Source of the DNA: Geobacter sulfurreducens PCA
Lineage (GTDB): Bacteria; Desulfobacterota; Desulfuromonadia; Geobacterales; Geobacteraceae
Assembly: GCF_000007985.2 (NCBI RefSeq)
Contig: NC_002939.5
Span: 2,370,001 to 2,402,000 of the forward strand
DNA length: 32,000 nucleotides
Reading direction: 5' to 3'
Shown here: one piece after another, positions 1-17,316 of the stretch
Layout of the letters: every line of letters begins with the position of its first letter
Numbering within the stretch: the first letter of the stretch is position 1
Made by a program: the position numbers and the translations under genes
The notes under the pieces: generated by a model
What the model was told of the DNA's origin: nothing
What the model saw: the letters and a program-made list of their open reading frames with translations, nothing else
Databases searched by the model: none

Positions 1-972
1 AGCAAACTCGCTGCATTTCTGGGACGGGCTATTCCGACCCATCAGCAGAAACAATCCTCACACCTCGGTGACCGAACCTTGTACGTCGGAGCATCCGATA
101 TTGCCGGCTGTCCACGCAAAGCGGCACTCGGCAAACAAAACCCGACCGGTCACGACATCAAAACACTCCTTCGTTTTTCCCGTGGCCACGCCGCGCAAGC
201 CATGTATGCCGATTTCTTCAGGACCGGTGGCGCTCTCTTCGAAGAAGAAGTCGAAGTGCGGCATCCGGCTATACCTGAGATCAGGTGTCACATCGACTTC
301 CTGTTCTATGCAAACCGGCAGACCAAACGGCTGCACATCGTGGAGATGAAGTCGACCGACGGCATCCCCGACGAACCCTACGCATCATGGGTGGATCAAC
401 TGCATGTCCAGATGGGCCTGCTGCAACTCACCCTTGATCCGGCAGTGGAAATCGGTGGTTCGATCCTGGTGGTGGACCTCAATGCGGGATCGTACCATGA
501 GTTCAACAGCTATACACCCAACAGACTGGTATTCGACCAGCTTGTGGAAAAGGGAAAGCATATCCTTGCAGCAGCGCGAGGCGAGTGCGCTCCCCGAACC
601 GAACCAGGTATTCTCTGCGGTTACTGTCCGTTTCGCACCGGCTGTCCTTCCCATGCCGTCGCCCTGGATCTCCCCCGGGAGATACTTGATACCGGCAGGA
701 AGTATCTGGAGCTGAATGAACAAAAGAAGGCTCTCGAAAACCGACTGGACGTCCTGAAGAACGACATTCTCACCTTTGCGGATGGCACGTTCAAAGGGGC
801 TTCGGACGGAATACTGATCAATGTCACCTCAGTGGCTGATTCGACAACCATCGACAGCTACAAGCTCAAGAGAAACTATCCAGATATATACGATCAGGTA
901 ACGAAACCGAAGTCAGGTTACGTCAAACTTGAAATCAAGCCATTCACGCCGCTCGCAGCTCAAGCGGCTTGA
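1..972 (+). CDS. PD-(D/E)XK nuclease, Cas4/RecB-like with four-Cys cluster (5' end may lie left of the window)
   Basis: Frame 1 has no stop from nt 1, so the TTG at 79 used by the ORF track need not be the start. The translation shows an N-terminal Cys (SDIAGCPRK) and a D...ExK core (HIDFLF ... IVEMKS). The C-terminal CGYCPFRTGC (C-x2-C-x5-C) completes the Cys arrangement of Cas4/AddB-type Fe-S nucleases. Confidence 0.7.
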   Translation, partial: SKLAAFLGRAIPTHQQKQSSHLGDRTLYVGASDIAGCPRKAALGKQNPTGHDIKTLLRFSRGHAAQAMYADFFRTGGALFEEEVEVRHPAIPEIRCHIDFLFYANRQTKRLHIVEMKSTDGIPDEPYASWVDQLHVQMGLLQLTLDPAVEIGGSILVVDLNAGSYHEFNSYTPNRLVFDQLVEKGKHILAAARGECAPRTEPGILCGYCPFRTGCPSHAVALDLPREILDTGRKYLELNEQKKALENRLDVLKNDILTFADGTFKGASDGILINVTSVADSTTIDSYKLKRNYPDIYDQVTKPKSGYVKLEIKPFTPLAAQAA

Positions 973-1526: not shown

Positions 1527-1566
1527 CAATCACACGGCAGCACACTGCCGGAACAAGGAGGCCATT

Positions 1567-1971
1567 ATGAGCCCAAAGATTCCACGGCCAAAGGCTGTTA
1601 CCGGTTTCACCATCGAACGCCGGTCGTCATGCGGCAAAATCTACACTACGGTAACACTCTCTCCGGGCACCGCTGTTCCCATGGAAATATTCGTGCGCTT
1701 TGGCAAAGCCGGAGGGTGCGGTTCCGCCATGGCCGACGGCATTGCCCGGCTGGTCTCGTACGGTCTCCGTTCGGGACTTGAAGCAACCGATGCTGTCAAA
1801 GCATTGAGCGGTATCGGCTGTCATCTGGGGAGCAATACCTGTCTCAACTGCGTTGCCGAATCAATCCGCCTGGTACTTGTACATCTTGATACCGGACGGG
1901 ATCTGAACGACTTGATTGAGGAAGCGGCTCTTGCAGAGGCAAACGCCGTAAGCGCCCACGAATTCAACTGA
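1567..1971 (+). CDS. TSCPD-domain protein (stand-alone homolog of the class II ribonucleotide reductase C-terminal domain)
   Basis: ATG at 1567 is preceded by AAGGAGG. GKIYTTVTL...EIFVRFGKAGGCGSAMADGIARLVSYGLRSG...NTCLNCVAESI matches the TSCPD domain layout. The canonical T-S-C-P-D motif is replaced by N-T-C-L-N. The longer ORF-track start at 1261 has no RBS and overlaps the previous gene. Confidence 0.6.
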   Translation: MSPKIPRPKAVTGFTIERRSSCGKIYTTVTLSPGTAVPMEIFVRFGKAGGCGSAMADGIARLVSYGLRSGLEATDAVKALSGIGCHLGSNTCLNCVAESIRLVLVHLDTGRDLNDLIEEAALAEANAVSAHEFN

Positions 1972-2069: not shown

Positions 2070-3011
2070 ATGAACTACGAAATCAGAAGCACGTTCAATA
2101 TCGACGCGCCCAAATCCGTCACCATCAAGGGAAGAACACCGGGACATCCGGCGGTTCCCCAACAGGATCTCCAGTACATTTTCCGGCAGTCAACCCTGTC
2201 CGACCTGTTCACCTGGTATCTCCTCGGTGAACGCTCACTCTATCTCACCGGCCCGACCGGCTGCGGGAAATCCTCTGTCATCATTGAGGTTGCCGCACGG
2301 CTCAACATCCCCCTCTGGAATGTCGTCGCCCACTCCCGGCTGGAAACTCCGGAACTGATCGGCGGCTATCGGCTCAATGCCGGCGGAGGAATGGATTTTG
2401 TGCATGGGCCGCTCATCATTGCCATGAAGGAAGGTGGCTGGTTTCTGATCGATGAAATCGATCTGCTCGATCCTTCCACTGCTGCGGGACTGAACGGTAT
2501 TGCCGAAGGCCGCCCCATCACTATTCCGGAAACGGGAGAAGTGGTAACGGCTCATCCGGACTTCCGTTTCATCGCCACCGCCAACTCAAATGGAGCCGGT
2601 GACGCTACAGGCCTCTACCAGGGGATACTGCGGCAGAACCTGGCTTTCCTCGACCGCTTCTACATGATCGAGGTCGGTTATCCCGACCAGGACATTGAAA
2701 AGAAAATCCTGACCGAAGTGGCGCCATCCGTCGGCAGCGACATCAGAGACCGCATGGTGGCAATCGCTAACGAGATCAGAGCCCTGTTTGTCAAAGGGGA
2801 GACGGAAGTCACCCTCTCGACCCGCACCCTGACCCGGTGGGCACGCATCACCGCCTTCCAGGGACGGGCCGCGGCCAGCCAGGGAATGTCCAACGGCGAA
2901 ACACTTACCAAGGCCTTCGACCGGGCTCTCGGCTTCCGGGCTGAACCCGATACCCGAACCGCCCTGCACGCTGTATTGCAGCGTCACTTCGGGGACAGGA
3001 GGTCGCCATGA
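2070..3011 (+). CDS. CobS-like AAA+ ATPase (AAA_5/MoxR clade)
   Basis: Walker A is GPTGCGKS and Walker B is WFLIDEID. CobS-like blocks are present: VPQQDLQYIFRQSTL, FRFIATANSNGAGDATGLYQGILRQNLAFLDRF. RBS is CAGGAGG. Confidence 0.85.
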   Translation: MNYEIRSTFNIDAPKSVTIKGRTPGHPAVPQQDLQYIFRQSTLSDLFTWYLLGERSLYLTGPTGCGKSSVIIEVAARLNIPLWNVVAHSRLETPELIGGYRLNAGGGMDFVHGPLIIAMKEGGWFLIDEIDLLDPSTAAGLNGIAEGRPITIPETGEVVTAHPDFRFIATANSNGAGDATGLYQGILRQNLAFLDRFYMIEVGYPDQDIEKKILTEVAPSVGSDIRDRMVAIANEIRALFVKGETEVTLSTRTLTRWARITAFQGRAAASQGMSNGETLTKAFDRALGFRAEPDTRTALHAVLQRHFGDRRSP

Positions 3012-3421
3012 GCAGATACCGGGCACTCAAATCATCCGTGGATCTGCACCTGCAGGATCTGATCAGGAATCACGACAAGGTCTATCACCTGGCGGTATTC
3101 GAACGTAACGACGGCGGCTATGACGTCCTGTACGGATACGGGCGTCGTGGCGCATCCATGCGCCTCGGCATTCTGAAGGGTGGTGAGAACCTCCGTGATT
3201 ATCAGACAGCCATCCGCCTCATGCACAAGAAAGAAACGGAACAGGTTCAGGGCGACGGGTATCAGTACGCCGACGGCATCACTCCCGGCGTCTGGAACAA
3301 CCTGATGCCGAAACCTTCTGCGGCGCCAACCGCACCTGCTACCCCACAACCAAAAGAGCCGGGACCGGAGGCAACCGAACCGCACATAGGCGGTAACGGA
3401 CCGAAGTCATGGTTCTGGTAA
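3008..3421 (+). CDS. WGR-domain-like protein with Pro-rich tail ending in WFW
   Basis: An ATGA overlap couples it to the ATPase gene. KVYHLAVFERNDGGYDVLYGYGRRGASMRLG...YQTAIRLMHKKETEQVQGDGY follows the WGR pattern, with YGRRG in place of WGRIG. The tail is PSAAPTAPATPQPKEPGPEA...KSWFW followed by the stop. Confidence 0.6.
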   Translation: MSRYRALKSSVDLHLQDLIRNHDKVYHLAVFERNDGGYDVLYGYGRRGASMRLGILKGGENLRDYQTAIRLMHKKETEQVQGDGYQYADGITPGVWNNLMPKPSAAPTAPATPQPKEPGPEATEPHIGGNGPKSWFW

Positions 3422-3450
3422 CTAACTACAGTCCCACGAAAGGAGACATC

Positions 3451-4407
3451 ATGAATAACACTACCATTAGCAAAGTACTCCAGGGTCTGGTCCTGGTTCA
3501 TCTCAGCTTCTCCGTCTGGTCCGGCAAGAAGAAACTCCGGCCGGAAGATTTGAAGGGTGCGAATCTGCCACCCGACAAGCTCGCCTCTCTCGGGTCAAAG
3601 CGCATTTTTGATCCTGATGCCCTCAAGGTGTTCGCCACCCTGAAGCGCCAGGCTGAACGCGCCTGCGAAGAGGTAGGAGTCAGATTCCTTGGTGGCTATG
3701 CCATTCCCGAGGAAAAGCTGGCTCCCCTTATGGAGAAGATGGAACAGGTCGAACAGAGCTTTGCCACGGCAAAGACGAATTTCCTGTCGGCATACGACGA
3801 CAATCTCAAGGACTGGCTCGCCGAAGCCGGTGAATGGTCTGAGATCGTCGCTCGTGCCGTTGAACCGGCTAACCGTGTCGCCGAACGGCTCTCCTGCGGT
3901 TTCACTGCCTTTAAGGTGGAAGCACCCGGAGAAACTGTTTCAGCGGTACAACCTCTGGAACGACAGGTTGGCGGTCTCGCGGATCAACTGATCCATGAAA
4001 TCGGCGCCCTGGCAAAATCAACCTGGGAGGAATCGTACCGGGGTCGCACTTCCGTTACCCGGAAGGCTCTTCGCCCACTGAAGGCAATCCTCGACAAACT
4101 ATCAAGCCTGACCTTCGTTGGCCCTGACAAGATCAGCGGCCTCGTTGCCAACGTACATGCGGCACTCGCCACCGTACCCAGATCCGGACCGGTCACCGGG
4201 GCAACCCTGATGGGCCTGGTCGGAGTATTGTGCGAGCTGTCAGACATTGCCGGTTTCATCACGACCGAGGAACGGGAAGAAATGCTGCAACCGCTCCCCG
4301 AACCAGAAGTCGAACCGGAACTATCTGCACCTCTTCCACCAAAGACCGTAACGATCATGCCGCAGCCGGTACAGCAGATTGAAGCGCCGGCTGTCTGGTT
4401 CTGGTAA
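3451..4407 (+). CDS. DUF3150-like protein with Pro/Glu-rich tail ending in WFW
   Basis: ATG at 3451 is preceded by AAAGGAGA. The N-terminal block LVHLSFSVWSGKKKLRPEDL...LPPDKLASLGSKRIFDPDALKVF...GVRFLGGYAIP resembles my recollection of DUF3150 proteins that accompany CobS/CobT-like pairs on plasmids and ICEs. The tail is LPEPEVEPELSAPLPPK...APAVWFW followed by the stop. Confidence 0.55.
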   Translation: MNNTTISKVLQGLVLVHLSFSVWSGKKKLRPEDLKGANLPPDKLASLGSKRIFDPDALKVFATLKRQAERACEEVGVRFLGGYAIPEEKLAPLMEKMEQVEQSFATAKTNFLSAYDDNLKDWLAEAGEWSEIVARAVEPANRVAERLSCGFTAFKVEAPGETVSAVQPLERQVGGLADQLIHEIGALAKSTWEESYRGRTSVTRKALRPLKAILDKLSSLTFVGPDKISGLVANVHAALATVPRSGPVTGATLMGLVGVLCELSDIAGFITTEEREEMLQPLPEPEVEPELSAPLPPKTVTIMPQPVQQIEAPAVWFW

Positions 4408-4416
4408 GGAGTCGCC

Positions 4417-6144
4417 ATGAAAACACGACCTCTTGCCCTGATCGCCAAAGTACTTGGCCGGAAATACGATGTCACCATAACCATTGCCGGACAGGTTGCC
4501 TGCACCAGCGGGAAGGAAATCACTATCCCGGTCGTGTCAGGCCCCCATGCCGAAGCGCTTGCCCATGGTTATATCGATCATGAAGCGGCGCATGTCCGGT
4601 ACACCGATTTTTCCGTACGTCTCACGGACGATTTCGCGGGGGATCTGCTCAACATCCTTGAAGATGTGAGAATCGAACAGGCAATCGGCCAGGAGTATCC
4701 CGGCTGTATCGCCAACCTCCGCGAGCTGACCCGTCTTCTGGTCGAACAGGAAGGCGTATTCAGACCAGACCCGTCCCATCCATCCCAAAGCATCCTCGCC
4801 TGGATCATGGCCGTGATCTACATGGCAGTACTTGGTCATGACTCGTTGCGGCAAACCAGGGACAGCGCCGAACCTTTGGTCCGGCAGGCTCTGGGGAGAA
4901 ACTTCAACCAGGCTTTGTTGCTGCTGGATCGTGCCGGGGCACTTACATCGACCCGTGAAGCAGCGGCACTCCGGGATGAACTGATGAAGCTCATCCGTGA
5001 CTCCGCACACCAACAACCGAAAAACGGGCAATCCCGGCCTTCCCAAAGTCAACCCGGCAGTCACGGAGATCAAAACGACGGGACAGGCAGCGATAACTCC
5101 CGGCAACAGAATGGAACCGGCAGTAACGGTAGTCGACAGGCACAGAACGGGGATAAGCAGCAAATCTCCTCACAGCCTGCCGGCTCCGGACAGGATAAAT
5201 CATCCGGACACTCTTCTCAGGGACAATCCGGGGCGTCTGATTCACCATCCCAGGAATCTGTCCGCCAGGCATTAGCGGAAGCTTTGTCGGGCAAGAGTGT
5301 CGGCTCCTTCGGGAACGTGGGAGAAAAACTGGCCGAACTGCTCTGCCAGAACGCTACCGAAAGTTCATTCAACGGGACAGCCGCAGCAGCACCACGGCTG
5401 CCAACTGCCCAACTACTGAACCAAAACGGCGGATACGATGATCTTTCCGCGCTTCGTGTCCACACGGCAGCCTTGCGAGCCCGGCTTCAGGGGCTTGTCC
5501 AGGCATCGAAACAGAAACGATCCACCCCGGTTAGCGTCGGGCACCGACTGGATTCACGTGTACTGACCCGTCTTCGTATCTGCGACACTCGGGTTTTTAC
5601 CAGGAAAGAGGAAAAACGGGCGGTCAATACGGCTGTCTGTATGCTTCTGGACAGTTCCGGAAGCATGGGCAACACCACCATCCTCAACAAGATGGGCATC
5701 GCCTCCCGCGCCTGCTTCGTGGCGGCAGAGGCGCTCTTCTCCATTCCCGGTGTCCGCACGGCGATTGCCACCTTCAAGGGGCACGACAATCACGTCTTCC
5801 CCATGGTCAACTTCGGGGAAAAGCCTGATCACAGCAGATTCAACATTACCGGTTCCGGTGGCACCAGACTCGGCCATGCACTTTGGTGGGCATGGGGCGA
5901 ACTCAGCCTGCGCCGGGAAACACGCAAGATCTGTATCGCCTTCTCCGATGGCGACACCGGCGATGGCCCTGTCACTCAAGCCGCTATCAAGCGGATGAGG
6001 GAAGAGGGAATCGAGGTGATCGGGATAGGTATTCAGGACAACAGCATCAAGCAGTATCTGCCTGACAACCATCGGATCATCAAGAACCTTGACCAGTTCA
6101 CCCCGGCGCTGCTGGAACTGCTGCGGGAAAAACTGGTTGCCTAA
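4417..6144 (+). CDS. CobT-like protein: N-terminal HExxH region, Q/S/G/N-rich linker, C-terminal VWA domain
   Basis: HEAAH lies at nt 4579-4593, followed by EDVRIEQ. A long polar low-complexity stretch spans about nt 5011-5258. The MIDAS-type motif LLDSSGSMG sits at about nt 5641-5670, followed by VWA-like strands (ICIAFSDGDTGD, EVIGIGI). RBS is AAGGAG. Confidence 0.8.
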   Translation: MKTRPLALIAKVLGRKYDVTITIAGQVACTSGKEITIPVVSGPHAEALAHGYIDHEAAHVRYTDFSVRLTDDFAGDLLNILEDVRIEQAIGQEYPGCIANLRELTRLLVEQEGVFRPDPSHPSQSILAWIMAVIYMAVLGHDSLRQTRDSAEPLVRQALGRNFNQALLLLDRAGALTSTREAAALRDELMKLIRDSAHQQPKNGQSRPSQSQPGSHGDQNDGTGSDNSRQQNGTGSNGSRQAQNGDKQQISSQPAGSGQDKSSGHSSQGQSGASDSPSQESVRQALAEALSGKSVGSFGNVGEKLAELLCQNATESSFNGTAAAAPRLPTAQLLNQNGGYDDLSALRVHTAALRARLQGLVQASKQKRSTPVSVGHRLDSRVLTRLRICDTRVFTRKEEKRAVNTAVCMLLDSSGSMGNTTILNKMGIASRACFVAAEALFSIPGVRTAIATFKGHDNHVFPMVNFGEKPDHSRFNITGSGGTRLGHALWWAWGELSLRRETRKICIAFSDGDTGDGPVTQAAIKRMREEGIEVIGIGIQDNSIKQYLPDNHRIIKNLDQFTPALLELLREKLVA

Positions 6145-6225
6145 TCACAACCCACATCCCGACGGGGAATGCCATTCCCCTCGGGGATATGTGCGTTCTC
6201 CGTCGGTACTACACGAGGAGAACCC

Positions 6226-6789
6226 ATGAAAATTACCATTTCAAACGACAAGGCTTCAGCAACGGTCATCTGCCGGGATCTGATCCTGGATGATTCCGTT
6301 GCCGGAGCCCGCAATCTCTTCTACCTCACCGCCTACGGCCCCACTCAGGAGATCCGGGCATTCGCCCAGATTCTTGCCATGAAGGGGTCACTTGAATGCC
6401 ACGGAAAAGAAGACCGATCAATCAACATCTGGAGCAACCATCACCTGCGGGTCATACCGAAGATGGGCGAAGGGTATTCGGGGGTGTACATCACACCGTC
6501 GTCCGACTCGTCGTTTCTGATCGGCAGCTCGAAGGCGGATTGTTACCAGGTCTTTACCAGGATTCTCGATCAGCGGGAGTTTGTCCATCGCGATTGGTAC
6601 GAAGTGCTGTTCAACGAGGTATCCACGGAAATCGAGCCCTTTGTTGGAAACAAGCGGTGCTGGAAATTTCGGGGCCACGAACTCAAGTCGGAGATAGTCA
6701 ACCGGCTCAAATACGGCGGGCTCAAGATGCCTCCAGCAACAGCGCACTTCACCATCGAAAAGGAGGAACGCCATGCGTTATCCAATTGA
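6226..6789 (+). CDS. hypothetical protein
   Basis: ATG at 6226 is preceded by GAGGAGAA. I recognised no motif. It is on the same strand and close-packed with its neighbours. Confidence 0.5.
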   Translation: MKITISNDKASATVICRDLILDDSVAGARNLFYLTAYGPTQEIRAFAQILAMKGSLECHGKEDRSINIWSNHHLRVIPKMGEGYSGVYITPSSDSSFLIGSSKADCYQVFTRILDQREFVHRDWYEVLFNEVSTEIEPFVGNKRCWKFRGHELKSEIVNRLKYGGLKMPPATAHFTIEKEERHALSN

Positions 6790-7042
6790 ACAGGTATCGG
6801 ACAACTGGGAACGCCGGATCATCAATAACGGCTACGTTCAGCACCGTGAAGTCTACCGTAACGGTTCTCGCGGAGAGTGGCAGTTTTACATATCCGGCTT
6901 CGGACCCACGGTGGAAGGAGGAACGGGACGCTGTACCGTCCTTAAGGAAGGCGGCAGCTATGATCATTTCGTCCCCATCGATGCCAACAACCGGATCAAG
7001 ATCAATGGCCGCTGGTATGACCGGCGCTATTGGGATCACTGA
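6773..7042 (+). CDS. hypothetical protein
   Basis: ATG is preceded by AAAAGGAGGAA and overlaps the upstream gene by 17 nt. No motif recognised. Confidence 0.5.
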   Translation: MRYPIEQVSDNWERRIINNGYVQHREVYRNGSRGEWQFYISGFGPTVEGGTGRCTVLKEGGSYDHFVPIDANNRIKINGRWYDRRYWDH

Positions 7043-7151
7043 GACGAAGAAGTAATTAATTACTATCCCTCTGCGGGTAGGCGGTTTTAACCTCCTCCCC
7101 GAACGGAGAGGGTGTTATCTCCGCCTGCCCCCTGTTACCAAGGAGACAGGC

Positions 7152-10100
7152 ATGGAACTTACCACTACCATCAACAGCTCGTTTTCCCGCACCCGGGGGA
7201 ATGAACTGAACAAGGGGTACTACCCGACCTTTCCATCTGACGTTCAGACGGTACTTCGTATCCTGGAGCCGTCATTCGGTTGGAAAAGCCGGCGCTACAA
7301 TGCCCTGAAAACCATATCAGTCCTTGACCCCTGCGCGGGTGAAGGCGAATTCCTGACCACAGTGACTCGCTGGCTCAAAAGGCGCTTTGCCGCCTCCAAC
7401 GGTTCACCTCACGAAATCCTCTCCTATGCCGTTGAACTGGATGCCGGCAGGTTCGCCAGGATTCACGGGACAACCCAGAAACTCAACTCGTCGTTCTTCG
7501 ACGTGGAGCTTTCCGGCAAGTTCAATCTGATCTTGCTGAATCCGCCTTACAACAAGGCCGCCGGCAACGAACTGGTCACCTGGATGGAAAAGACAGCGCC
7601 CCTGCTGGCCTACGAAGGAGTGATGGTTCTCATCATTCCCGAGTATGAACTGAAAGGGAGGCTGCTGGACATCATCCAGGGTACGTTTACCTTTGCCTAC
7701 GCCTTCCAAAGCGAGGAATACGCCCGCTTCAAGCAGGTTGTCGTATTTCTGGCAAAGAATCAGGACAACAGCAGCGAAATCTATCATCAGTATGTCCGTT
7801 ATCAGAGTTGGCCCGCTGCCAACCTGGGGGATGGAGCGGTACGGGGGAAGTACACCGTGCCGGGCAAACGCCAGACTCTTTCCCTTGGCGGCAGCAATGG
7901 CAGCAACCGCCCGCTCATGACGGCCCGCGACCTCACGGAGTTTTACCGGGAGTGCGAGGACCGGCTCGACAAGGCGGCGGGCATGGTACTGGACAGGCAG
8001 TATCCGTCGTCTTATGACACCAGCATCCAGCCCATCTCAACCCTGCGAACTGCGCACGCCGTCCAACTGGCAGCCATGAACAGCCAGATCGAATCTATCA
8101 CCATCAACTGCGACTTCTTCCTGGCTAAATTCATGGTCATCACCAAAAACGAGACCTTCAAAGATCCGGAGAACAACTGCGAGACGATGGTCTGCAAGCC
8201 CACCGTCGAAGCATTTCTGATGGACCGCCACGGGTACGTGAAACCGGCCCGGGAACACGGGTTCGATTATTACGAACTCAACAGCCGGCTCTCATCGGTG
8301 CTTCTGCAGAAACTCTCACGGCTCTACCAGCCCCTTCACGAAATCGGCCAGGACGAAGCATACCTGGTTGATGAACTGCAGGGGATCGGTCTGCTCCCCC
8401 CGCAACGGGAAGCGGTCAAGGCCGTCATCAAAGCCTACCGCTCAGGACGCCGGGGTATCGGCATTCGTGCCAATACCGGCACCGGGAAAACATGGATGGC
8501 GAAAGCGGTGAAGTACCTGACCAATGCGAAACGCACGGTGATGGTATCGGAACCGCAGCTTATCCCCCAGTTGGCACGGGAATACGCCAACGAGGGGTTC
8601 AATGTGCATGTCATCGACTCCTGGGAAGTCTTGAAGGAACTTGCCGCAACCAGGCCGCACGGTCTCTACCTGATCGCTTACACACGGCTCAGGATGCACC
8701 CGAAATACCGGCTATGCATCAGGAGTCGTAAAACCATCGTCAAGAAGGATGGCAATAGCTCCGTGGAATTCACGGAGGTATGTCCGTCCTGCCGTTCGCC
8801 TCTGACCGAGAAGATCCGCAAGGGTGACAAACCCAAGTGCTCATATTGTGGCGAACCGCTCTTTACCTATATTCCTGAAAATGACCGCACAGCCATGACC
8901 TATCGCCGCTGGATCAGCGAGATCGAGAACAACGGCACCGCCACGGAAGCACGGACGCACAACAAACAGTTGCCGTACATCCGATTCCTCAAGCGGATTC
9001 CATTCGACCTCGCCATCTTCGACGAAGTTCATAACGCGGCCAACCTGATGAGCAATCAGGGGACCGCGTTCATCCGGCTTGCCGCAACTGCTGCCAAAGT
9101 TCTCGCCCTCACCGCCACCGTGACCAACGGTATGGCGAAATCAGTCTACAACATCCTGTGGGGGCTGAATCCGAAGCAGATGCGCGACTCCGGCTGGGAG
9201 ATGAAGTCAGCCACAGATTTCCAGACAAAGTACGGAGCATTCAAAGAGGTCAGGAAAACCGATGAAAAGAACCGTCACCGGGAATCGGAACGTGTCACCA
9301 CCTACGATACCGCCGGAATCTCGCCGGCAGCCCTGATCTATACGCTCCCCAACTTCGTCAATGTGGACAGTGACGACTTCGATGACCTGCCACCAGTGGA
9401 ACGGGAGGTCATCAAGTGTCCGTCACACGCTCTGGTGGAAACCTGTCACCGGAGCATCGAAAACATCATCGAAAAGGCAGACCTGCCACCGGAAGACCTT
9501 CTTGCCGCCGCAGCCGTCCGCAATGCCGCTTTTCTGCGTGTCAGCGACACGTTCCGGCATTACAACGACGAACTGAAGCTGCGGGATGTTCCGCTCGGCA
9601 CGCTGCACCGGCTGTCGCTTCCCGACGGGGAGCTGCTGCTGGAAAAGGAAGAAAAACTCATCGCTATCGCCCAAGGGGTGATTGACCGGGGAGAGCGTCT
9701 ACTGGTCTATACCGGGAACACGCAGAAGATCGACATGCGCCCCGTCCTGAAACGCATCCTTCGGGATAACGTCCAGGGCGCCAGCATCGAGATCCTGCCC
9801 GACTCGGTTGCACCTGAAAAGCTGGTTGGATGGTTCGAGCAGGTAACGGCTCAAGTCGTTGTCGTCTCGTTCCATCGCGTCGCCACGGGTCTCAACTTGT
9901 CCCAGTTCAATAACCTTGTCTGGTACGACTACACGTCCAATACCAGACTGGCCGAACAGGGGGACGGGAGAATCCGTCGCGTCAACACTGCTGACATCCA
10001 CCGGGCTCAGTTCGGGGAAGTTCGTCCCGTCCGTTATTGGTATCTCACCTCTTCAGAAGTCCAGGCGTTGCAGCTTGCCTACACCCTGGAGAAGAGGATG

Positions 10101-10508
10101 GTCGCCAAGCTGGCGGAGGGGGAAACACCAGACATCGACCCGGCGGAATGCAGCAGCAGCCAGTCGTTTTCATCCCTGATGACCAAGGCGCTCAAGGAGG
10201 GGAACTTCAACTACTCCGACCCGTCGGCACTGTTGAAGAAGATGACCCAGCACGAGAACGCCCGCGTCAGGGGGGACAACAAGGCCGCATCGCCGGTCAG
10301 AAACAACGTCATCCAGCTGCCGGTCACCAGACCGGAACCCGTTCCCGTTCCATCATCCATTGCCGTCATCCACTGTGAAGGGGGCAAGGAAATCACCCGG
10401 GAACTGCCGTTCGGCACCTACCAGACCTTACTGGATACAGGAGCGCTGGAATTCACCCTGTTCGGCGTCTATCTGCGCCAACCCGCTCCCATGCGGAAGC
10501 GGGCCTGA
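7152..10508 (+). CDS. fusion of N6-adenine-type DNA methyltransferase and SF2 (DExH) helicase with inserted zinc ribbon
   Basis: The N-terminus has the SAM motif VLDPCAGEGEF and the catalytic motif LLNPPYNK. The helicase part has Walker A RANTGTGKTW, motif II FDEVHNAAN, motif III LTATVTNG and motif VI QGDGRIRR. CPSCRSPL...CSYCGEPL forms a C-x2-C ... C-x2-C ribbon. RBS is AAGGAGA. Confidence 0.85.
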   Translation: MELTTTINSSFSRTRGNELNKGYYPTFPSDVQTVLRILEPSFGWKSRRYNALKTISVLDPCAGEGEFLTTVTRWLKRRFAASNGSPHEILSYAVELDAGRFARIHGTTQKLNSSFFDVELSGKFNLILLNPPYNKAAGNELVTWMEKTAPLLAYEGVMVLIIPEYELKGRLLDIIQGTFTFAYAFQSEEYARFKQVVVFLAKNQDNSSEIYHQYVRYQSWPAANLGDGAVRGKYTVPGKRQTLSLGGSNGSNRPLMTARDLTEFYRECEDRLDKAAGMVLDRQYPSSYDTSIQPISTLRTAHAVQLAAMNSQIESITINCDFFLAKFMVITKNETFKDPENNCETMVCKPTVEAFLMDRHGYVKPAREHGFDYYELNSRLSSVLLQKLSRLYQPLHEIGQDEAYLVDELQGIGLLPPQREAVKAVIKAYRSGRRGIGIRANTGTGKTWMAKAVKYLTNAKRTVMVSEPQLIPQLAREYANEGFNVHVIDSWEVLKELAATRPHGLYLIAYTRLRMHPKYRLCIRSRKTIVKKDGNSSVEFTEVCPSCRSPLTEKIRKGDKPKCSYCGEPLFTYIPENDRTAMTYRRWISEIENNGTATEARTHNKQLPYIRFLKRIPFDLAIFDEVHNAANLMSNQGTAFIRLAATAAKVLALTATVTNGMAKSVYNILWGLNPKQMRDSGWEMKSATDFQTKYGAFKEVRKTDEKNRHRESERVTTYDTAGISPAALIYTLPNFVNVDSDDFDDLPPVEREVIKCPSHALVETCHRSIENIIEKADLPPEDLLAAAAVRNAAFLRVSDTFRHYNDELKLRDVPLGTLHRLSLPDGELLLEKEEKLIAIAQGVIDRGERLLVYTGNTQKIDMRPVLKRILRDNVQGASIEILPDSVAPEKLVGWFEQVTAQVVVVSFHRVATGLNLSQFNNLVWYDYTSNTRLAEQGDGRIRRVNTADIHRAQFGEVRPVRYWYLTSSEVQALQLAYTLEKRMVAKLAEGETPDIDPAECSSSQSFSSLMTKALKEGNFNYSDPSALLKKMTQHENARVRGDNKAASPVRNNVIQLPVTRPEPVPVPSSIAVIHCEGGKEITRELPFGTYQTLLDTGALEFTLFGVYLRQPAPMRKRA

Positions 10509-10584
10509 CCATCACCCACAACCCTCGCGGGGACCGACTCCCCGCAGGGGTGATCGGTCTCCGCAACCAACAAGGAGACCGGCA

Positions 10585-10980
10585 ATGACCGAGACAAACA
10601 CCGTAAAGCGCCTCATCATCCCCATGCACGACAACAGCGAGTTCTTTTCCGACAATGCTGACTACGCCATCATCGATCTTGACGCCGCCCTCATCGAGCG
10701 GATCAAGAAGCTGGCGGTGGTCGTGAGACAGATGAAGGCCAACAAGATCAGCGAATTCAACCATACCTGCGACTTCAGGACTGTCGATTGGGATGCCGAG
10801 CCGGACAACGGCAAGGTAGCCATGAAGGAGTTCGAGGGACGGATGGAGTGTTCCACTCTGAACGTCACCGACAGCGATTTCTTCTGGTCGGGCTACTACA
10901 AGCACACCGATGTCCGGTGGGAAACCGACACGGTGCTGATCAAGTCGCTCGACGAACCGGACATCCTGGATGAGCGGTAA
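10585..10980 (+). CDS. hypothetical protein
   Basis: ATG at 10585 is preceded by CAAGGAGA. The ORF-track start at 10360 overlaps the helicase gene and reads as low-complexity sequence. Confidence 0.5.
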   Translation: MTETNTVKRLIIPMHDNSEFFSDNADYAIIDLDAALIERIKKLAVVVRQMKANKISEFNHTCDFRTVDWDAEPDNGKVAMKEFEGRMECSTLNVTDSDFFWSGYYKHTDVRWETDTVLIKSLDEPDILDER

Positions 10981-11006
10981 GCGTGCGGAGAAGAGGAGGA
11001 CGCAGC

Positions 11007-11528
11007 ATGAGCCCTCTCGACCGACAGACTGACGAACCGACCAACGAGGAACGTGCCGGCAGGATTGACACTGTCATGCAGGCCTACTGCCTGACCCTCG
11101 AAAACCGGGATTTCGACGGCGACGAAGACGACGTGAAGGACATGCTCACCGACCTAATGCACTTCTGTGAGCGGATGGAGATCGATTTCGAAGAGAATCT
11201 CCGCGTCGCCCGCAACAACTACAAGCATGAACGGCTCGCGGAACAAGGCGATACCGGCCAGCTTGGCTGCCCGGTGTGCGGCTGCTTTCTGGAGGTTACC
11301 CGGACCGATACCCTGTTGGGGATCGACCGGGAGTTGTACGACTGCCAGGAATGCGACGAGATCTTCATCCGGGAGCTGAATGCCCCGGACAGTCCACTCC
11401 AGCGAGCAGTCAAATGTGTCGGCTGCGGCAACATGATTCCGCAGGCCTCGGCGCGCATCCTGTACCAGCGGGACGACTACGCCCACTTTATCGGCGAGTG
11501 CTGCTGGGACGAACGGCTGCGTGAGTGA
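11007..11528 (+). CDS. hypothetical acidic protein with two Cys pairs (putative zinc ribbons)
   Basis: ATG at 11007 is preceded by GAGGAGGA. Cys pairs are CPVCGC...CQECDE and CVGCGN...ECCWDE. Confidence 0.5.
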   Translation: MSPLDRQTDEPTNEERAGRIDTVMQAYCLTLENRDFDGDEDDVKDMLTDLMHFCERMEIDFEENLRVARNNYKHERLAEQGDTGQLGCPVCGCFLEVTRTDTLLGIDRELYDCQECDEIFIRELNAPDSPLQRAVKCVGCGNMIPQASARILYQRDDYAHFIGECCWDERLRE

Positions 11529-11541
11529 AAGGAGGCTTGCC

Positions 11542-12057
11542 ATGACCCTGAACACGACGTTGCAGGCGGCACGAGATATGGGCGTGCCGGAGCGTTACGC
11601 GGTAATGCGCCGGCTGGCCTTCCTGCAGCCGCAGATCAAGCATCTGGAGCGGGAAATCTGGGGAGCGCGACGGCGGACGGATCGCAGTCGCGACCTGCTG
11701 ATCAAGGCCCTGTCCGAATCCCTCATCAGAGACCAGGAAAAGGAGCTTCGCCCCATGAAACGTGAGGCGACGGCGCTCCTGAACCATGTCAACGGCAAGG
11801 AGACTGTGCAGGCGCCCGGCGGAATCACCCAGGAGATGATCGACCAGGCCCGGCAGTATCCCATCACCAGCATCATCGAATTCTCCAAGGGGCGGTACCG
11901 CTGCTGTCCGTTTCACGAGGACCGCAATCCGTCCATGGCCTTGTACGAAAACCACGTCCACTGTTTCGTCTGTAACCGGACCTGGGATTCGATCAGTGCC
12001 ACGATGGCGCTGGATGGCGTGACTTTCCGGGAAGCCGTACTGGCTCTCCAGAGCTGA
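11542..12057 (+). CDS. CHC2 (DnaG-type) zinc-finger protein lacking a primase catalytic domain
   Basis: ATG at 11542 is preceded by AAAGGAGG. CCPFHEDRNPSMALYENHVHCFVCNRTWDSISATMALDGVTFREAV matches the zf-CHC2 pattern (CPFH-x-E-x-x-PS ... CF-x-C). The protein ends right after the finger. Confidence 0.7.
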   Translation: MTLNTTLQAARDMGVPERYAVMRRLAFLQPQIKHLEREIWGARRRTDRSRDLLIKALSESLIRDQEKELRPMKREATALLNHVNGKETVQAPGGITQEMIDQARQYPITSIIEFSKGRYRCCPFHEDRNPSMALYENHVHCFVCNRTWDSISATMALDGVTFREAVLALQS

Positions 12058-12135
12058 ACAAAATCTATCTCAAACCCTATGGGGGCGATGACTGCCCCCC
12101 CAAGGGGAGGTCCGCCCCCGCTATCGGAGGAGGAT

Positions 12136-12627
12136 ATGAATCTTAATCTCTTCGGTGAACCGGTACCGCCGGTCACCAAACGAATCATGGTGCGCTCAAT
12201 CGAGGCCCGCTACAGAAACGAAGTCGTGCGTGACGATGCCCCGGAATGGGTGTCGATGCGCTTCACGAAACCCGAGCAGGTCTATGAGATGTTCCGGGAT
12301 CTCCGACGTGAGACGAAGGAGCATTTTGTGGTGTTGCATCTCGACGGCAAGAACCGGATCGTCTGTTTCGACCGGGTCTCCATCGGTTCGCTCAACCAGG
12401 CCATTGTTCATCCTCGGGAGGTGTTCAAGACGGCATGCCTGTCCAATGCGGCGGCCATTCTGCTTGTGCACAACCATCCGACCGGTGATCCGAACCCCAG
12501 CAGCGAAGATATCGCCATCACCAAGCGTCTCAAGGAGAGCGGCGACATTCTCGGCATCCGGGTACTGGATCACATCATCGTCGGTGATGACGAGTTCCTG
12601 AGTTTTGTCGAACAGGGACTCTTGTAA
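12136..12627 (+). CDS. radC: RadC-like JAB/MPN domain protein
   Basis: The JAMM-like motif LLVHNHPTGDPNPSSEDIAITKRL is present, followed by GIRVLDHIIVG. ATG at 12136 is preceded by GGAGGAGGA. Confidence 0.85.
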   Translation: MNLNLFGEPVPPVTKRIMVRSIEARYRNEVVRDDAPEWVSMRFTKPEQVYEMFRDLRRETKEHFVVLHLDGKNRIVCFDRVSIGSLNQAIVHPREVFKTACLSNAAAILLVHNHPTGDPNPSSEDIAITKRLKESGDILGIRVLDHIIVGDDEFLSFVEQGLL

Positions 12628-12766: not shown

Positions 12767-12904
12767 ATGTCAGTCAGAGCACGTATCAACGGTAGGGAAT
12801 TCACGCTGAGCTGGGAGGAATTTGAGAAGGCGCTGCACCGGAACAACATTGTCGGTGGCGAATTCGAGGTTCTTGCCATATATGCCGGCGGGAGACCCTG
12901 CTAG
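12767..12904 (+). CDS. possible 45-aa ORF, unknown function
   Basis: It falls below the ORF-track length cutoff. ATG at 12767 is preceded by AAGGGGGA. The translation is MSVRARINGREFTLSWEEFEKALHRNNIVGGEFEVLAIYAGGRPC. Two hairpins follow directly, the second being a canonical terminator. Confidence 0.35.
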   Translation: MSVRARINGREFTLSWEEFEKALHRNNIVGGEFEVLAIYAGGRPC

Positions 12905-12939
12905 CATCTTCAGACCGGATACCCGTCCGGTCTGGATAG

Positions 12940-12970
12940 AGGCGGCCCATGTGGTCGCCTTTTTATTTTT
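12940..12970 (+). terminator. rho-independent terminator
   Basis: Stem AGGCGGCC / GGTCGCCT (one G-U pair), loop CATGT, then TTTTTATTTTT. It is preceded by a 9-bp hairpin, CAGACCGGA-TACCCG-TCCGGTCTG, at 12911-12934. Confidence 0.6.
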
Positions 12971-13059
12971 ATACCTATAGAAAGCACCATTCCCTATGGC
13001 GGCCCCGGTTTTCTTGGACACGAAAATGAGGTAAATCTAGGTGTTCAAGGAGGTCGTCA

Positions 13060-14309: not shown

Positions 14310-14450
14310 CTCTTATCTTGTGTCCAGGGTACCGGGCGCGCTACATCTCTTTCTCCGTCTTCACGTCGTCGTTCGCCATGGAGAACCCTGCGACCGCGAC
14401 AAGAAGCAGCATCAATCCGCCAACCATCATGGTCCTACCGTTAATGATCT

Positions 14451-15050: not shown

Positions 15051-15093
15051 CAAGGGGAACAGGCCTCCTGAAGGAGTGTGCTTCATTCACATA

Positions 15094-15112: not shown

Positions 15113-15228
15113 TCAGGCGTCGTCACTGATCCGAGCAGCGCCATATCTGGTTCATCTGCTCAATTACGACTCTGATGAGGACTGTTGGTGGGGTATGTGG
15201 CGGAACAACCGGAGCAACAGGGTGCGGA

Positions 15229-17301: not shown

Positions 17302-17316
17302 ATTCGGAGCGAGACC

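Follow-up and report, generated by a model that had tools for sequence, protein, structure and literature searches.

Gene content of the locus

The window (the whole stretch of 32,000 nucleotides of the Geobacter sulfurreducens PCA genome that was analysed) carries near its beginning a series of packed genes (Table 1). The initial annotation had described six same-strand genes, flanked by a Cas4-like nuclease on the left and a methyltransferase-helicase on the right. All six ORFs, their coordinates and domain calls, as well as both flanks, were confirmed. The junctions are exact as well: the ATPase and WGR-like genes overlap by 4 nt (ATGA, 3008-3011), the DUF3150 gene starts at ATG 3451 after a 29-nt gap (an alternative ATG lies upstream at 3409), 9 nt precede 4417, and the fifth and sixth ORFs overlap by 17 nt (6773-6789).

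Table 1. Coordinates of the cassette genes and of the flanking genes in the window.
Feature	Position	Strand	Basis
PD-(D/E)XK nuclease, RecE-like C-terminal region, truncated at the window start	79..972	+	Pfam PDDEXK_1, PHROG 434
MoxR/CobS-class AAA+ ATPase, 313 aa	2070..3011	+	Pfam AAA_5, CbbQ_C; Vcrx089 homologue
WGR-like small adaptor, 137 aa	3008..3421	+	Pfam WGR below gathering score; Vcrx090 positional equivalent
DUF3150 protein, 318 aa	3451..4407	+	Pfam DUF3150 (7e-97)
CobT-like adaptor/effector, HExxH + VWA, 575 aa	4417..6144	+	Pfam CobT, VWA, CobT_C
Conserved hypothetical protein (fifth gene), 187 aa	6226..6789 (ORF open from 6169)	+	Third-position substitution bias
Variable small ORF (sixth gene), 89 aa	6773..7042	+	Coding status weakly supported
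DUF6094 methyltransferase-ResIII/SF2 helicase fusion, 1118 aa	7152..10508	+	Pfam DUF6094, ResIII, Helicase_C

The last two ORFs had been described as lacking any recognisable motif, and they gave no matches in Pfam, NCBIfam, PHROGs or PADLOC; the DUF2201_N profile suggested earlier did not match either. The most likely start of the fifth gene is ATG 6226 and not 6169, because homology in its relatives begins there and the homologues measure 179-199 aa. This gene is truly coding, since in comparisons with ten relatives the third codon position carries 28-63 substitutions and the first or second 3-22. None of its 47 homologues has a Pfam domain. At two related loci (L090 and L091) the next gene downstream of it is the DUF6094-helicase gene, and the AAA-WGR-DUF3150-VWA genes are 6-8 kb away. 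Judged by this arrangement, it goes with the downstream methyltransferase-helicase and is not a cassette gene. The sixth ORF is present in only two of the ten close relatives compared (L017 and L018) and absent or replaced in L007-L013 and L016, with a different 88-aa ORF in its slot in L007. It probably belongs with the methyltransferase-helicase, as a variable occupant of a cargo slot lying between this gene and the fifth one. The view of the six genes as one unit therefore has to be abandoned.

Regarding the flanks, the methyltransferase-helicase matches DUF6094 (5e-12), ResIII (1.5e-11) and Helicase_C in Pfam, and its architecture recurs in L065, L081, L090 and L091. By this distribution it moves separately from the cassette that it adjoins, and it probably has another establishment or anti-restriction function. 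The nuclease matches PDDEXK_1 (4e-5) and the RecE-like exonuclease PHROG 434 (7.7e-16). Its ORF runs past the window start, and the homologue in L007 starts just upstream of the point equivalent to window position 1, preceded by TraF, TraH, SSB and a 318-aa protein, in that order. Hence, the nuclease of the "Cas4-like nuclease operon" stands, but the better reading is an exonuclease, encoded by the last gene of an upstream recombination module (ssb/putative annealase/exonuclease).

A four-gene cassette of conjugative elements

On the basis of gene order, the conserved unit is made up of four genes (AAA+, WGR-like, DUF3150 and HExxH-VWA, 2070-6144). The same-strand order AAA, DUF3150, VWA was found in essentially all of the approximately 86 loci with enough flank, which form 21 clusters at 85% identity. 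Such core-gene synteny across more than 80 independent loci is far more than expected by chance. The carriers are IncC, IncP-type and other MOBH plasmids, SXT/R391-type ICEs (51 SXT-type loci share the cassette at ≥85% identity) and Geobacter elements. Among plasmids with a DUF3150 match, 972 of 1150 are conjugative; all typed cassette plasmids are MOBH, and MPF_F is the mating-pair system wherever one was typed. The neighbours are F-type tra genes (TraF, TraH, TraN, TraG) and, almost always, ssb, an annealase (RecT, Bet or ERF type) and an exonuclease, from which the cassette is separated in L090 and L091. Neither the window nor the related loci examined contain cobN or any other cobalamin gene. 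As for the earlier question of whether the block is conserved and mobile, the four-gene cassette is both, on conjugative plasmids and ICEs, and never beside cobN. From these comparisons, the block 2070-6144 would lie in a conjugative element that has inserted into a Geobacter-type genome and be a member of the family of the IncC "hde" operon and the SXT/R391 AAA/DUF3150/VWA genes.

The ATPase and its CobT-like partner

The ATPase matches AAA_5 (1.4e-21) and CbbQ_C (1.3e-10) in Pfam, with Walker A GPTGCGKS at residues 61-68 (nt 2250-2273) and Walker B within FLIDEIDLL. It is 41% identical over its full length (E 5e-81) to the AAA ATPase in the Vcrx089 position of IncC. Sequence matches in the PDB include the AAA modules of Midasin (1.6e-67), CobS (1.3e-26), CbbQ and NorQ, and the phage "CobS" family PHROG 249 also matches (2.5e-60). 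By homology, this protein would form a hexameric motor of the MoxR/CobS type.

The CobT-like protein presents the CobT N-terminal domain (2.4e-8), VWA (6e-8) and CobT_C. An HExxH motif (H55-H59, nt 4579-4593) lies in the M48C-like N-terminal domain, residues 204-273 are a disordered Q/S/G-rich linker, the MIDAS of the VWA domain is intact (D412-x-S414-x-S416 at nt 5650-5664, T483 and D511), and the C-terminus is KLVA. Across 59 homologues, the HExxH and MIDAS are invariant, and the IncC counterpart is 31% identical over the full length. The profile of this family also matches the chelatase CobT 9uka_G (2.4e-39), where SMALR occupies the position of HEAAH in the window protein; the Glu of the downstream ED-R-E motif is present in the chelatase too. 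The retention of an invariant HExxH that is absent from chelatase CobT is a new finding. Since the HExxH zincin motif, which the chelatase does not have, is kept along with an intact MIDAS, the CobT-like protein may be a protease as well as an adaptor, and conservation of the HExxH alone is no proof of proteolysis.

The AlphaFold2 model (pLDDT 78) is closest in fold to the VWA domain of NorD in NorQD complexes and to the MIDAS domain of Rea1; the search is dominated by the VWA domain, and these matches apply to that part of the protein. The C-terminus is VA or AA in 63 of 120 homologues. In previous work, the M48C-peptidase-like N-domain of CobT binds the CobS small subdomain and the CobT shaft enters the ring (preprint 10.64898/2026.07.21.739949), and in NorQD the complex depends on the NorD C-terminus (L-V-A), which is docked on the NorQ ring (PMC13036017). 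By analogy with these structures, the CobT-like protein could be the fixed partner of the motor: its N-terminal domain would bind the small subdomain of the ATPase, the shaft before the VWA domain would enter the pore, and the hydrophobic -LVA end would dock on the ring.

The DUF3150 and WGR-like proteins share a C-terminal tail

The DUF3150 protein is composed of a mainly helical folded domain (residues 1-270), a disordered linker and a tail ending in AVWFW (WFW codons at 4396-4404). Its AlphaFold2 model (pLDDT 85.5, pTM 0.76) is of low confidence from about residue 270 onward (block mean pLDDT 47-58 for 271-318). The predicted fold had no match in the PDB (best E 0.6) and is shared by eight uncharacterised phage proteins; tblastn of DUF3150 against phage records found no genuine phage, only one Salmonella plasmid record filed among them. 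The IncC counterpart is 31% identical, and the last residue is F or W in 109 of 120 homologues.

The WGR-like protein is arranged in a similar way, with a WGR core, a Pro-rich linker and a tail ending in KSWFW (WFW codons at 3410-3418). Its match to Pfam WGR (2.7e-3, 18.2 bits) is under the 22-bit gathering score, which is cleared by its relatives of 36-39% identity (31-41 bits; P0289 and P0291 among them), and the next relatives are fusions of WGR with ATP-dependent DNA ligases. BLAST detected no Vcrx090 homologue in the window. However, profile-profile comparison with the N-terminus of the Vcrx090 family gave a probability of 82% (E 1e-5) over about 56 columns. The protein is the positional equivalent of Vcrx090, and a closer link between the two is suggested by position, tail and this profile match.

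The tail is the same in both proteins of an element, WFW in the window, and its sequence varies from element to element, being acidic residues followed by [FY][FY] in IncC. Over the last four residues at 13 loci, 34 of 52 positions are identical within the locus, where 15.9 ± 2.6 would be expected; the observed value was not reached in any of 100,000 permutations, a significance that is overstated because the loci are not phylogenetically independent. In independent loci added afterwards, the tails are identical in 7 of 7 residues (MEGFVLF) in L088, they are TWFW and VWFW in L090, and they match in part in L089. Apart from the DUF3150 and WGR-like genes, no ORF in any of the six frames of the window and 12 relatives ends in W[FWY][FWY] or [FWY]W[FWY]. 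There are two exceptions to the rule, L006, where neither protein has an aromatic tail, and L087, where DUF3150 ends in CGLW without a partner. Furthermore, Bet and Exo of IncC and Exo of SXT also carry the DUF3150-type tail. A covariation scan for the tail receptor gave one weak hint, beside the MIDAS.

These matching tails are also a new finding and suggest how the machine is assembled. The label "adaptor-like" that had been given to the two embedded proteins is strengthened by them. Both could be exchangeable clients or adaptors that are built alike, the folded domain being followed by a disordered linker and by the shared aromatic tail, which would tether them to a common site on the AAA+/VWA hub.

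A possible role in establishment and anti-restriction

A direct experimental precedent comes from IncC. Vcrx089 and Vcrx090 expressed in the recipient protect incoming plasmid DNA from type I restriction (PMC7498323, PMC11602122). Their deletion lowers transfer into a type I R-M+ V. cholerae recipient 25-fold and is complemented only from the recipient, not from the donor (PMC7498323), and it increases EcoKI and EcoBI restriction 400-900-fold (PMC11602122). The anti-defence reading proposed in the initial annotation gains support from this homologous system. Its term "uncharacterised" no longer fits the ATPase family, for which this phenotype is published, but it does fit the mechanism, on which the literature is silent, and the DUF3150 and VWA proteins, on which nothing has been published. 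As a known defence system the cassette found no backing, since no defence-system model in PADLOC matches it.

Regarding these data, the reading that we favour, with a probability of roughly 0.6, is that of a four-gene establishment and anti-restriction cassette, in which an ATP-driven AAA+/VWA hub docks tail-tagged, DNA-acting adaptors and protects incoming DNA. The WGR domain, whose nearest relatives are the ligase fusions, would target the hub to sites where DNA that has just entered the cell is nicked or broken. At these sites, host nucleases (type I restriction enzymes, for instance) would be removed, remodelled or degraded by the motor, and/or the incoming DNA would be passed to repair proteins. 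The phenotype demonstrated for the IncC homologues Vcrx089-090, which in the recipient protect against type I and some type II restriction, may by analogy extend to the window locus. The IncC transcript extends through the DUF3150 gene. Nevertheless, the IncC TnSeq screen flagged only vcrx089-093 and not the DUF3150 and VWA genes (PMC7498323), so the VWA/DUF3150 half of the cassette may do something else.

A possible but clearly less likely explanation is that the cassette is a general accessory of the recombination/repair module of the element, in which the hub would act on element DNA during entry or replication by loading, unloading or regulating the annealase, the exonuclease and a nick sensor, and anti-restriction would be an indirect result of break repair. 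The almost constant neighbourhood of the recombination genes, the tails on Bet and Exo and the ligase fusions of the WGR relatives are consistent with it, as is the Vcrx089-090 effect, which seemed partly dependent on ssb/bet/exo in IncC (PMC7498323). However, the IncC ssb-exo deletion leaves transfer into a restricting strain unaffected without a CRISPR target, whereas the vcrx089-090 deletion lowers it (PMC7498323), and therefore the two functions are separable. Moreover, the nuclease and upstream proteins of Geobacter-type elements lack the aromatic tail, and in L090 and L091 the cassette stands apart from the recombination genes.

It is unlikely that the cassette is a defence system, that is, a MoxR-vWA conflict module directed against phages or competing plasmids to protect the host or the element, where the WGR protein senses invader DNA and the zincin/VWA protein is the effector. 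MoxR-VWA pairs and WGR domains are known from predicted conflict systems, defence cargo is frequent on mobile elements, and there are weak matches to bpMoxR (0.0066), to a WGR_XIII candidate (6.8e-4) and, via the P-loop only, to IetA/IteA. Against this, the only PADLOC hits of the four proteins are weak or trivial (P-loop), IncC/SXT-type elements (including the 51 SXT-type loci) carry the cassette as part of their backbone and not as variable cargo, the homologous IncC ATPase works for the incoming plasmid in the recipient, and the phage copies sit among early genes.

It is more improbable still that the tails are type IV secretion signals, read by the coupling protein and not by the AAA+/VWA pair, and that DUF3150, the WGR protein, Bet and Exo travel together with the DNA through the F-type conjugation channel. 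C-terminal signals are common on T4SS substrates, the typed plasmids are MOBH and, where the mating-pair system is typed, MPF_F, and the element-specific variation of the tails is what a coupling-protein code might show. Complementation from the recipient only speaks against export, and no other ORF in the 32 kb carries the tail, conjugation-related proteins included. The DUF3150 tail occurs in essentially every cassette, always with the ATPase and the VWA protein, which fits an internal receptor, and it was lost jointly from both L006 proteins.

Finally, the assignment of the ATPase and VWA protein to CobS and CobT of aerobic cobaltochelatase, found in many automatic annotations ("cobaltochelatase CobT") and based on Pfam CobT and CobT_C matches and CobS similarity, can be rejected, as already anticipated by the initial annotation, given scores far under the equivalog cutoffs (CobS 88.9 vs 558 bits, CobT 20.9 vs 759), the lack of cobN, the HExxH, the obligatory DUF3150 and WGR partners and the conjugative plasmid and ICE contexts.

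Comparison with known systems

In CobS-CobT(-CobN), the ATPase is similar and the partner shares the M48C-like N-domain, the disordered linker and the VWA domain with MIDAS. The window cassette differs in the sub-cutoff scores, the missing CobN, the mobile context, an intact HExxH where the chelatase has SMALR, and two additional obligatory proteins with putative docking tails. NorQ-NorD and CbbQ-CbbO resemble it in the AAA_5 + CbbQ_C motor, and NorD also in the VWA fold and in the -VA/-AA end of the window-protein family, like the L-V-A that docks on NorQ. In contrast, those systems act on one metabolic enzyme (metal insertion or reactivation) and lack DUF3150 or WGR clients, and their partners have no HExxH domain.

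Lambda Red/RecET-type ssb-annealase-exonuclease modules adjoin the cassette, are co-transcribed with it in IncC and share the DUF3150 tail class in IncC Bet and Exo and SXT Exo, but the cassette itself encodes neither an annealase nor an exonuclease and also occurs apart from these modules. Phage "CobS/CobT" pairs (Roseobacter phage CRP-810, PHROG 249) are annotated as auxiliary metabolic genes. The CobT-like protein of CRP-810 matches the window VWA-family profile over its full length (2e-91) and keeps the HExxH, its ATPase matches at 1.5e-50, and phage proteins with the DUF3150 fold exist. CRP-810 differs in having no separate DUF3150 gene and no aromatic tail, and in a 300-aa N-terminal extension of the ATPase.

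The closest system is the IncC "hde" operon (pVCR94, pKAZ3), together with SXT/R391, where Orf70 is the Vcrx089 homologue. The IncC middle protein has 302 aa versus 137 aa in the window, with no BLAST similarity between them; ssb-bet-exo lies between the middle gene and DUF3150, whereas the recombination genes are upstream in the window; and the window system belongs to another host lineage (Geobacter/Desulfuromonadales). Both share the AAA_5 + CbbQ_C ATPase, 41% identical over the full length, a gene 3' of it with a WGR-like N-terminus and an aromatic C-terminal tail, the DUF3150 and HExxH-VWA genes that follow on the same strand, and a location in a MOBH/F-type conjugative element beside ssb, annealase and exonuclease genes.

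Gene content of the block and its flanks

The four genes at positions 2070-6144 are read here as an establishment/anti-restriction cassette in which an AAA+/VWA hub would work with tail-docked adaptors, and the probability given to this reading is about 0.6. The initial annotation had proposed a candidate conflict system with a role in DNA entry, defence or anti-defence; the finding is real and the direction was right, and it is developed here as a computational hypothesis.

The six open reading frames described there are all on the forward strand, at the coordinates and with the overlaps and gaps claimed. Profile searches reproduced the domain calls, and DUF2201_N, which had also been suggested, gave no match. 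The Pfam gathering thresholds are 24.9 bits for DUF3150 (PF11348) and 22 bits for WGR (PF05406). Searches of Pfam, NCBIfam, PHROGs and PADLOC gave no match for the fifth and sixth frames. The start of the fifth gene is almost certainly at 6226, giving a protein of 187 aa, and it is truly coding, since its substitutions with respect to ten relatives are strongly biased to the third position. A promoter and terminator scan returned counts no higher than those in shuffled sequences.

Features of the window discussed in the text
Feature	Position	Strand	Evidence or remark
Nuclease ORF	79-972		interrupted by window edge
Stand-alone TSCPD protein	1564-1971		
AAA_5 + CbbQ_C ATPase	2070-3011	+	Pfam AAA_5 1.4e-21, CbbQ_C 1.3e-10
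WGR protein, sub-threshold match	3008-3421	+	Pfam WGR 18.2 bits
DUF3150 protein, full-length	3451-4407	+	7e-97, 324.1 bits, model positions 1-257 of 257
CobT-type N-domain + VWA domain protein	4417-6144	+	profile searches
Fifth gene	6226-6789	+	
Sixth ORF	6773-7042	+	89 aa
DUF6094 methyltransferase-helicase	7152-10508		
Zinc-ribbon protein, CHC2 (DnaG-type) zinc-finger protein, RadC	10576-12627; CHC2 11521-12057; RadC 12079-12627		3' of helicase
IS3-type transposase, two ORFs	13060-14309; HTH 13060-13422, rve 13419-14309		after RadC
TrfA replication initiator	15727-16566		
IS4-type transposase	19743-20861	-	
Fic protein	21832-23319		
tRNA-Gly(CCC)	23639-23713	-	

The zinc-ribbon, CHC2 and RadC genes that follow the helicase are of kinds typical of ICE establishment. 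The TSCPD protein is also found in three related loci (L089 10015-10488, L090 8605-8991 and L091 15131-15520). Near the cassette it is often accompanied by an anaerobic ribonucleotide reductase (NrdD) gene or fragment (L001, L088, L089), and its best NCBIfam match is the C-terminal part of B12-dependent ribonucleotide reductase.

Conservation and spread of the cassette

At the nucleotide level, megablast found no counterpart of the block in plasmids, which left protein-level searches as the only informative ones. By tblastn, the DUF3150 protein matched 1150 plasmids; 972 of them are conjugative, and most belong to IncC. For the locus scan, a seven-sequence DUF3150 alignment was too divergent and a three-sequence alignment succeeded. 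The loci compared (six annotated plasmid, 80 genome and five metagenome loci) form 21 clusters at 85% identity, with one SXT/R391-like cluster taking 51 of them. In essentially every locus with enough flank, the ATPase, DUF3150 and VWA genes are on the same strand and in that order, and the ATPase and VWA genes are adjacent or near-adjacent in almost all. In one metagenomic element (L087) a Fic-domain gene (8066-8812) lies between the DUF3150 and VWA genes; the Fic gene of the window is 15 kb off. The cassette is very widespread, being present in Geobacter, Vibrio, Klebsiella, Pseudomonas and Xanthomonas, with relatives in phages.

The interval between the ATPase and DUF3150 genes holds a short WGR protein in Geobacter-type elements and in Geoalkalibacter pGSUB1, and a 256-302-aa protein in SXT and IncC elements, to which IncC adds ssb-bet-exo; it is empty in Pseudomonas IncP-type and Citrobacter plasmids. 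An alternative reading, in which the cassette is an accessory of a recombination module, is considered unlikely.

Beyond this element the gene order is kept for four genes. The idea of a single six-gene unit was rejected: four genes make up the cassette, and the fifth gene forms a unit of its own with the methyltransferase-helicase. The slot between the VWA gene and the helicase (6145-7151) is variable in the close relatives L007-L018. About 660 nt more are present ahead of the fifth-gene homologue in L007-L010, L012 and L016, encoding in L007 a protein of ~217 aa with CxxC pairs (~12780-13430). Of these relatives, only L017 and L018 have the sixth ORF; L011 and L013 lack it, L007 has an unrelated ORF of 88 aa in its place, and in L014 everything from the fifth gene through the helicase is missing. 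In two more distant elements (L090 and L091) the gene directly before DUF6094-helicase is the homologue of the fifth gene, and the four-gene cassette is 6-8 kb away, so the fifth gene goes with the methyltransferase-helicase and not with the cassette.

Relationship with the IncC anti-restriction genes

The window ATPase is 41% identical over its full length (E 5e-81) to the ATPase at the Vcrx089 position of IncC, and the VWA and DUF3150 proteins are each 31% identical to their IncC counterparts. The setting, seen through the relative L007, is also that of the published IncC 'hde' operon: a conjugative element, beside ssb, a putative annealase and an exonuclease. Vcrx089 (AAA_5 + CbbQ_C) and Vcrx090 are required for transfer into type I R-M+ V. 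cholerae, are complemented from the recipient only and lose their importance once hsdR is deleted (PMC7498323). In E. coli, their deletion increases EcoKI and EcoBI restriction 400-900-fold (PMC11602122). The protection of incoming DNA when they are expressed in the recipient has been shown only for IncC plasmids (PMC7498323, PMC11602122), and the authors state that the mechanism is unknown. The IncC hde transcript reaches through vcrx094, which is inferred from consecutive numbering to be the DUF3150 gene by gene order. In the literature searched there is no mention of vcrx095, and DUF3150 appears only in an unrelated preprint.

The assignment of the middle gene is less direct. The window protein scores 18.2 bits against the 22-bit WGR threshold and shows no BLAST similarity to Vcrx090. 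The WGR assignment is supported because its relatives P0289 (39% identity, 31.3 bits) and P0291 (36%, 41.5 bits) pass the threshold, because same-position proteins also pass it (37.3 bits in L081, 23.2 bits in pGSUB1), and because the short WGR-like profile matches the N-terminus of the Vcrx090/SXT-type profile in hhalign (82%, E 1e-5, ~56 columns). Its next relatives are WGR-ATP-dependent DNA ligase fusions. The protein stands at the Vcrx090 position and has a C-terminal aromatic tail of the same kind, and it is probably, if not securely, a positional and distant homologue of Vcrx090.

A defence system would be another way to read the four genes. The matches to PADLOC-DB 2.0 are weak or P-loop only (IetA, 7.5e-4 over 31 residues; WGR_XIII, 6.8e-4) and the DUF3150 and VWA proteins have none, which makes this alternative improbable.

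As a side observation, the IncC SSB (L002 6096-6626) carries the canonical acidic tip DDDIPF followed by nine residues (MRLHHLAGG), which take the tip away from the C-terminus; in L088 and L090 the SSB has DDDIPF at its very end, the usual position.

A shared aromatic C-terminal tail

DUF3150 proteins are predicted to have a confidently modelled fold, a disordered linker and then a short aromatic C-terminus, whose last residue is F or W in 109/120 homologues. Within each locus, the protein encoded downstream of the ATPase and the DUF3150 protein have near-identical last residues, and in some elements Bet and/or Exo carry the tail as well.

C-terminal tails of the proteins of the cassette and of the recombination genes
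Element	Middle protein	DUF3150	Other
Window	SWFW	VWFW	
pGSUB1 (L001)	SNWF	VNWF	
IncC (L002)	DHFF	DYFF	Bet SYY, Exo FYW
V. owensii plasmid (L005)	DSYF	DCYF	Bet GNYF, Exo SAYF
SXT-type (L024)	NYYF	SFYF	Exo SFYF
Related locus L028	GVWF	VVWF	
Related locus L064	AWDF	FWDF	
Related locus L078	DEWF	SEWF	
Related locus L080	TWFF	GWFF	

Over 13 loci the two tails are identical at 34/52 positions, versus 15.9 +/- 2.6 expected if the DUF3150 tails are exchanged at random among loci. The observed value was not reached in any of 100,000 such shuffles, which is not a strict probability because the loci are related. Among the test loci fetched later, L088 matches at 7/7 residues (MEGFVLF), L090 has WFW in both proteins and L089 matches partially. 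L087 is a failure, since neither of its two small upstream ORFs has a tail to match that of DUF3150 (CGLW), and in L006 the tail is absent from both proteins. Such a motif is found at the end of no other six-frame ORF of at least 50 aa, either in the window or in 12 relatives.

The simplest reading is that the tail is a short docking peptide for a common putative receptor, drifting between elements. A covariation scan over 20 loci, for which the further paired sequences all came from the window's own clade, gave as its top column, with a weak signal, the residue after the 'DGx' of the MIDAS of the VWA protein (T514 in the window), which is Pro in 16/16 F-ending loci and non-Pro in 3/4 W-ending loci. 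That the tails are T4SS signals instead is very improbable.

The ATPase/VWA pair and its distance from cobaltochelatase

In the ATPase, Walker A (GPTGCGKS) is intact and Walker B is the DE of FLIDEID. In the VWA protein, H55, E56, H59, E82, D83 and R85 are invariant in 59 homologues, down to 22% identity, as are the MIDAS residues D412, S414, S416 and D511, with T483 nearly so. Judged by motifs and adjacency, the two proteins qualify as a MoxR-class AAA+/VWA pair. The predicted model of the VWA protein has strands at 20-37 (small sheet), a helix at 45-62 bearing HExxH, a 70-residue disordered linker and the VWA domain, and PHROG 459 'peptidase' matches residues 53-97.

Chelatase CobT shares E82, and its N-domain is reported to have an M48C-peptidase-like fold and to bind the CobS small subdomain, with a shaft that enters the CobS ring (preprint 10.64898/2026.07.21.739949). 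At the position where chelatase CobT has SMALR (GLGDSMALRQARH), the window protein has HEAAH (GYIDHEAAHVRYT), so a potential metalloprotease site, absent from the chelatase, is present in this clade. A zincin/M48-like fold is thus predicted for the N-domain by analogy with the chelatase CobT literature, on which the claim leans because the whole-protein fold search was dominated by the VWA domain (top matches: NorD in NorQD complexes and the Rea1 MIDAS domain). A haptoglobin match of the N-terminal 120 residues in the PDB was discarded as spurious.

The initial annotation had judged a cobaltochelatase role unlikely, and the equivalog scores agree (CobS TIGR01650 88.9 bits versus 558.55; CobT TIGR01651 20.9 versus 759.05). 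The window has neither cobN nor other cobalamin genes. The large neighbours in related loci are TraG/TraG_N, TraN, methyltransferases, ribonucleotide reductase and DUF6094-helicase and none is CobN, so the homologous blocks do not lie next to cobN. On these scores, the HExxH in place of SMALR and the neighbours, a chelatase pair, as the CobS/CobT resemblance might suggest, was rejected as next to impossible.

In NorQD, the C-terminus of NorD (L-V-A) docks on the ring and is essential (PMC13036017). The window VWA protein also ends in -LVA, and 63/120 of its homologues end in VA or AA. Together with the NorD fold matches, this end gives indirect support to a putative ATPase/VWA complex in which a shaft or finger would sit in the pore and the C-terminus would dock on the ring. 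Such ends are common in these elements, in the PD-(D/E)XK nuclease (AAQAA in the window; -AA in L006, L088 and L089), most VWA proteins and NrdD, with 20/252 called genes versus 15/607 uncalled six-frame ORFs. In proteins other than the VWA protein, such ends might reflect composition, act as a ClpX-type degron or represent a second class of docking signal.

DUF3150 fold and phage relatives

The predicted DUF3150 model is confident (pLDDT 85.5) and has no credible analogue in the PDB (best E 0.6, TM below 0.25). Eight uncharacterised phage proteins resemble this fold. The phage relatives surfaced only by the DUF3150 fold and via the VWA protein, and a scan of viral_contigs with the three-sequence DUF3150 alignment gave no match. 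Phages carry ATPase and HExxH-VWA pairs labelled CobS/CobT, such as those of Roseobacter phage CRP-810 (L092 1827-5645), whose CobT-like protein matches the family over its full length and keeps the HExxH (GYVDHEAGHVRHSDF). Its 'CobS' has 617 aa, including a 300-aa N-terminal extension. By their sequences both CRP-810 genes are placed in the non-chelatase clade, which suggests that the label 'porphyrin or cobalamin auxiliary metabolic gene' is wrong for such phage genes.

The mobile element carrying the cassette

The window DUF3150 protein has homologues with 91-98% identity in Geobacter/Desulfuromonadales genomes and MAGs, for example in Geobacter hydrogenophilus. In L007, which is ~91% identical to the window, the genes directly upstream encode TraF, TraH, SSB, a 318-aa protein and a PD-(D/E)XK nuclease homologous to that of the window. 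Downstream, the window encodes the CHC2 zinc-finger protein, RadC, IS elements, TrfA and Fic, and the tRNA-Gly gene sits exactly at a G+C step from ~50% to 68-70% (~23.7-24 kb). The Tra and SSB genes of L007, the mobile genes downstream and the tRNA at the step therefore place the block in an integrated F-type conjugative element. Past the tRNA the genes look chromosomal (CCA/poly(A) polymerase, CrtC, MacB-type ABC transporter, histidine kinase, aldolase), and the tRNA-Gly/G+C step is probably the integration site and the right end of the mobile DNA.

The segment at ~14400-23600 has ~50% G+C versus 55-60% in the cassette region. It resembles a second element, of plasmid origin, or else a mosaic insertion, placed between the ICE part and the tRNA. 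Besides TrfA, the IS4-type transposase and Fic, it encodes OmpA, a sigma-70 region-4 protein and a protein with a weak ParM/ALP-like match.

Proposed role and comparison with known systems

The establishment/anti-restriction reading joins the observed homology, synteny, motif conservation and tail co-variation to two points from the literature: the IncC homologues have an anti-restriction phenotype, and the architectures of CobST and NorQD have been described. In this reading the ATPase would join the VWA protein in a motor-adaptor hub, to which DUF3150 and the WGR protein, plus Bet and/or Exo in some elements, may be tethered by their tails. The WGR domain would target nicks or breaks, and the hub could remove, remodel or proteolyse host nucleases and/or coordinate repair.

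A stronger version, put forward tentatively as a computational hypothesis, combines an active zinc protease with an address tail, the hub degrading or extracting restriction enzymes. The AAA+ ring would carry a VWA subunit doubling as a candidate active zinc protease, and an element-specific aromatic 'address tail', read by the hub, would mark interchangeable clients (WGR nick sensor, DUF3150, annealase, exonuclease), which may bring the hub to newly entered DNA at breaks or where nucleases have stalled. If true, it would explain the Vcrx089-090 anti-restriction phenotype and give DUF3150 a role, and many phage and plasmid 'cobaltochelatase CobS/CobT' annotations would be anti-defence genes; the cassette is routinely mis-annotated as cobalamin biosynthesis. 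It is uncommon for several proteins encoded in one operon to be organised by a shared, element-specific C-terminal docking code, and such a code could be used for finding further clients.

The kind of system is already known, being that of the Hde/Vcrx089-090 anti-restriction genes, which raise transfer into restricting hosts up to ~900-fold and have been cited both in a 2026 survey of phage anti-defence and in a paper on tools for finding anti-defence systems. The present comparison places Vcrx089-090 in a conserved four-part machine (AAA+ motor, WGR-type adaptor, DUF3150 and HExxH-VWA partner), and turns a phenotype without explanation into a set of direct tests of mechanism. With respect to the literature searched, three features are new descriptions: the short-WGR variant in Geobacter-type elements, the four-part cassette including DUF3150 and the HExxH-VWA protein, and the tail common to DUF3150 and the middle protein.
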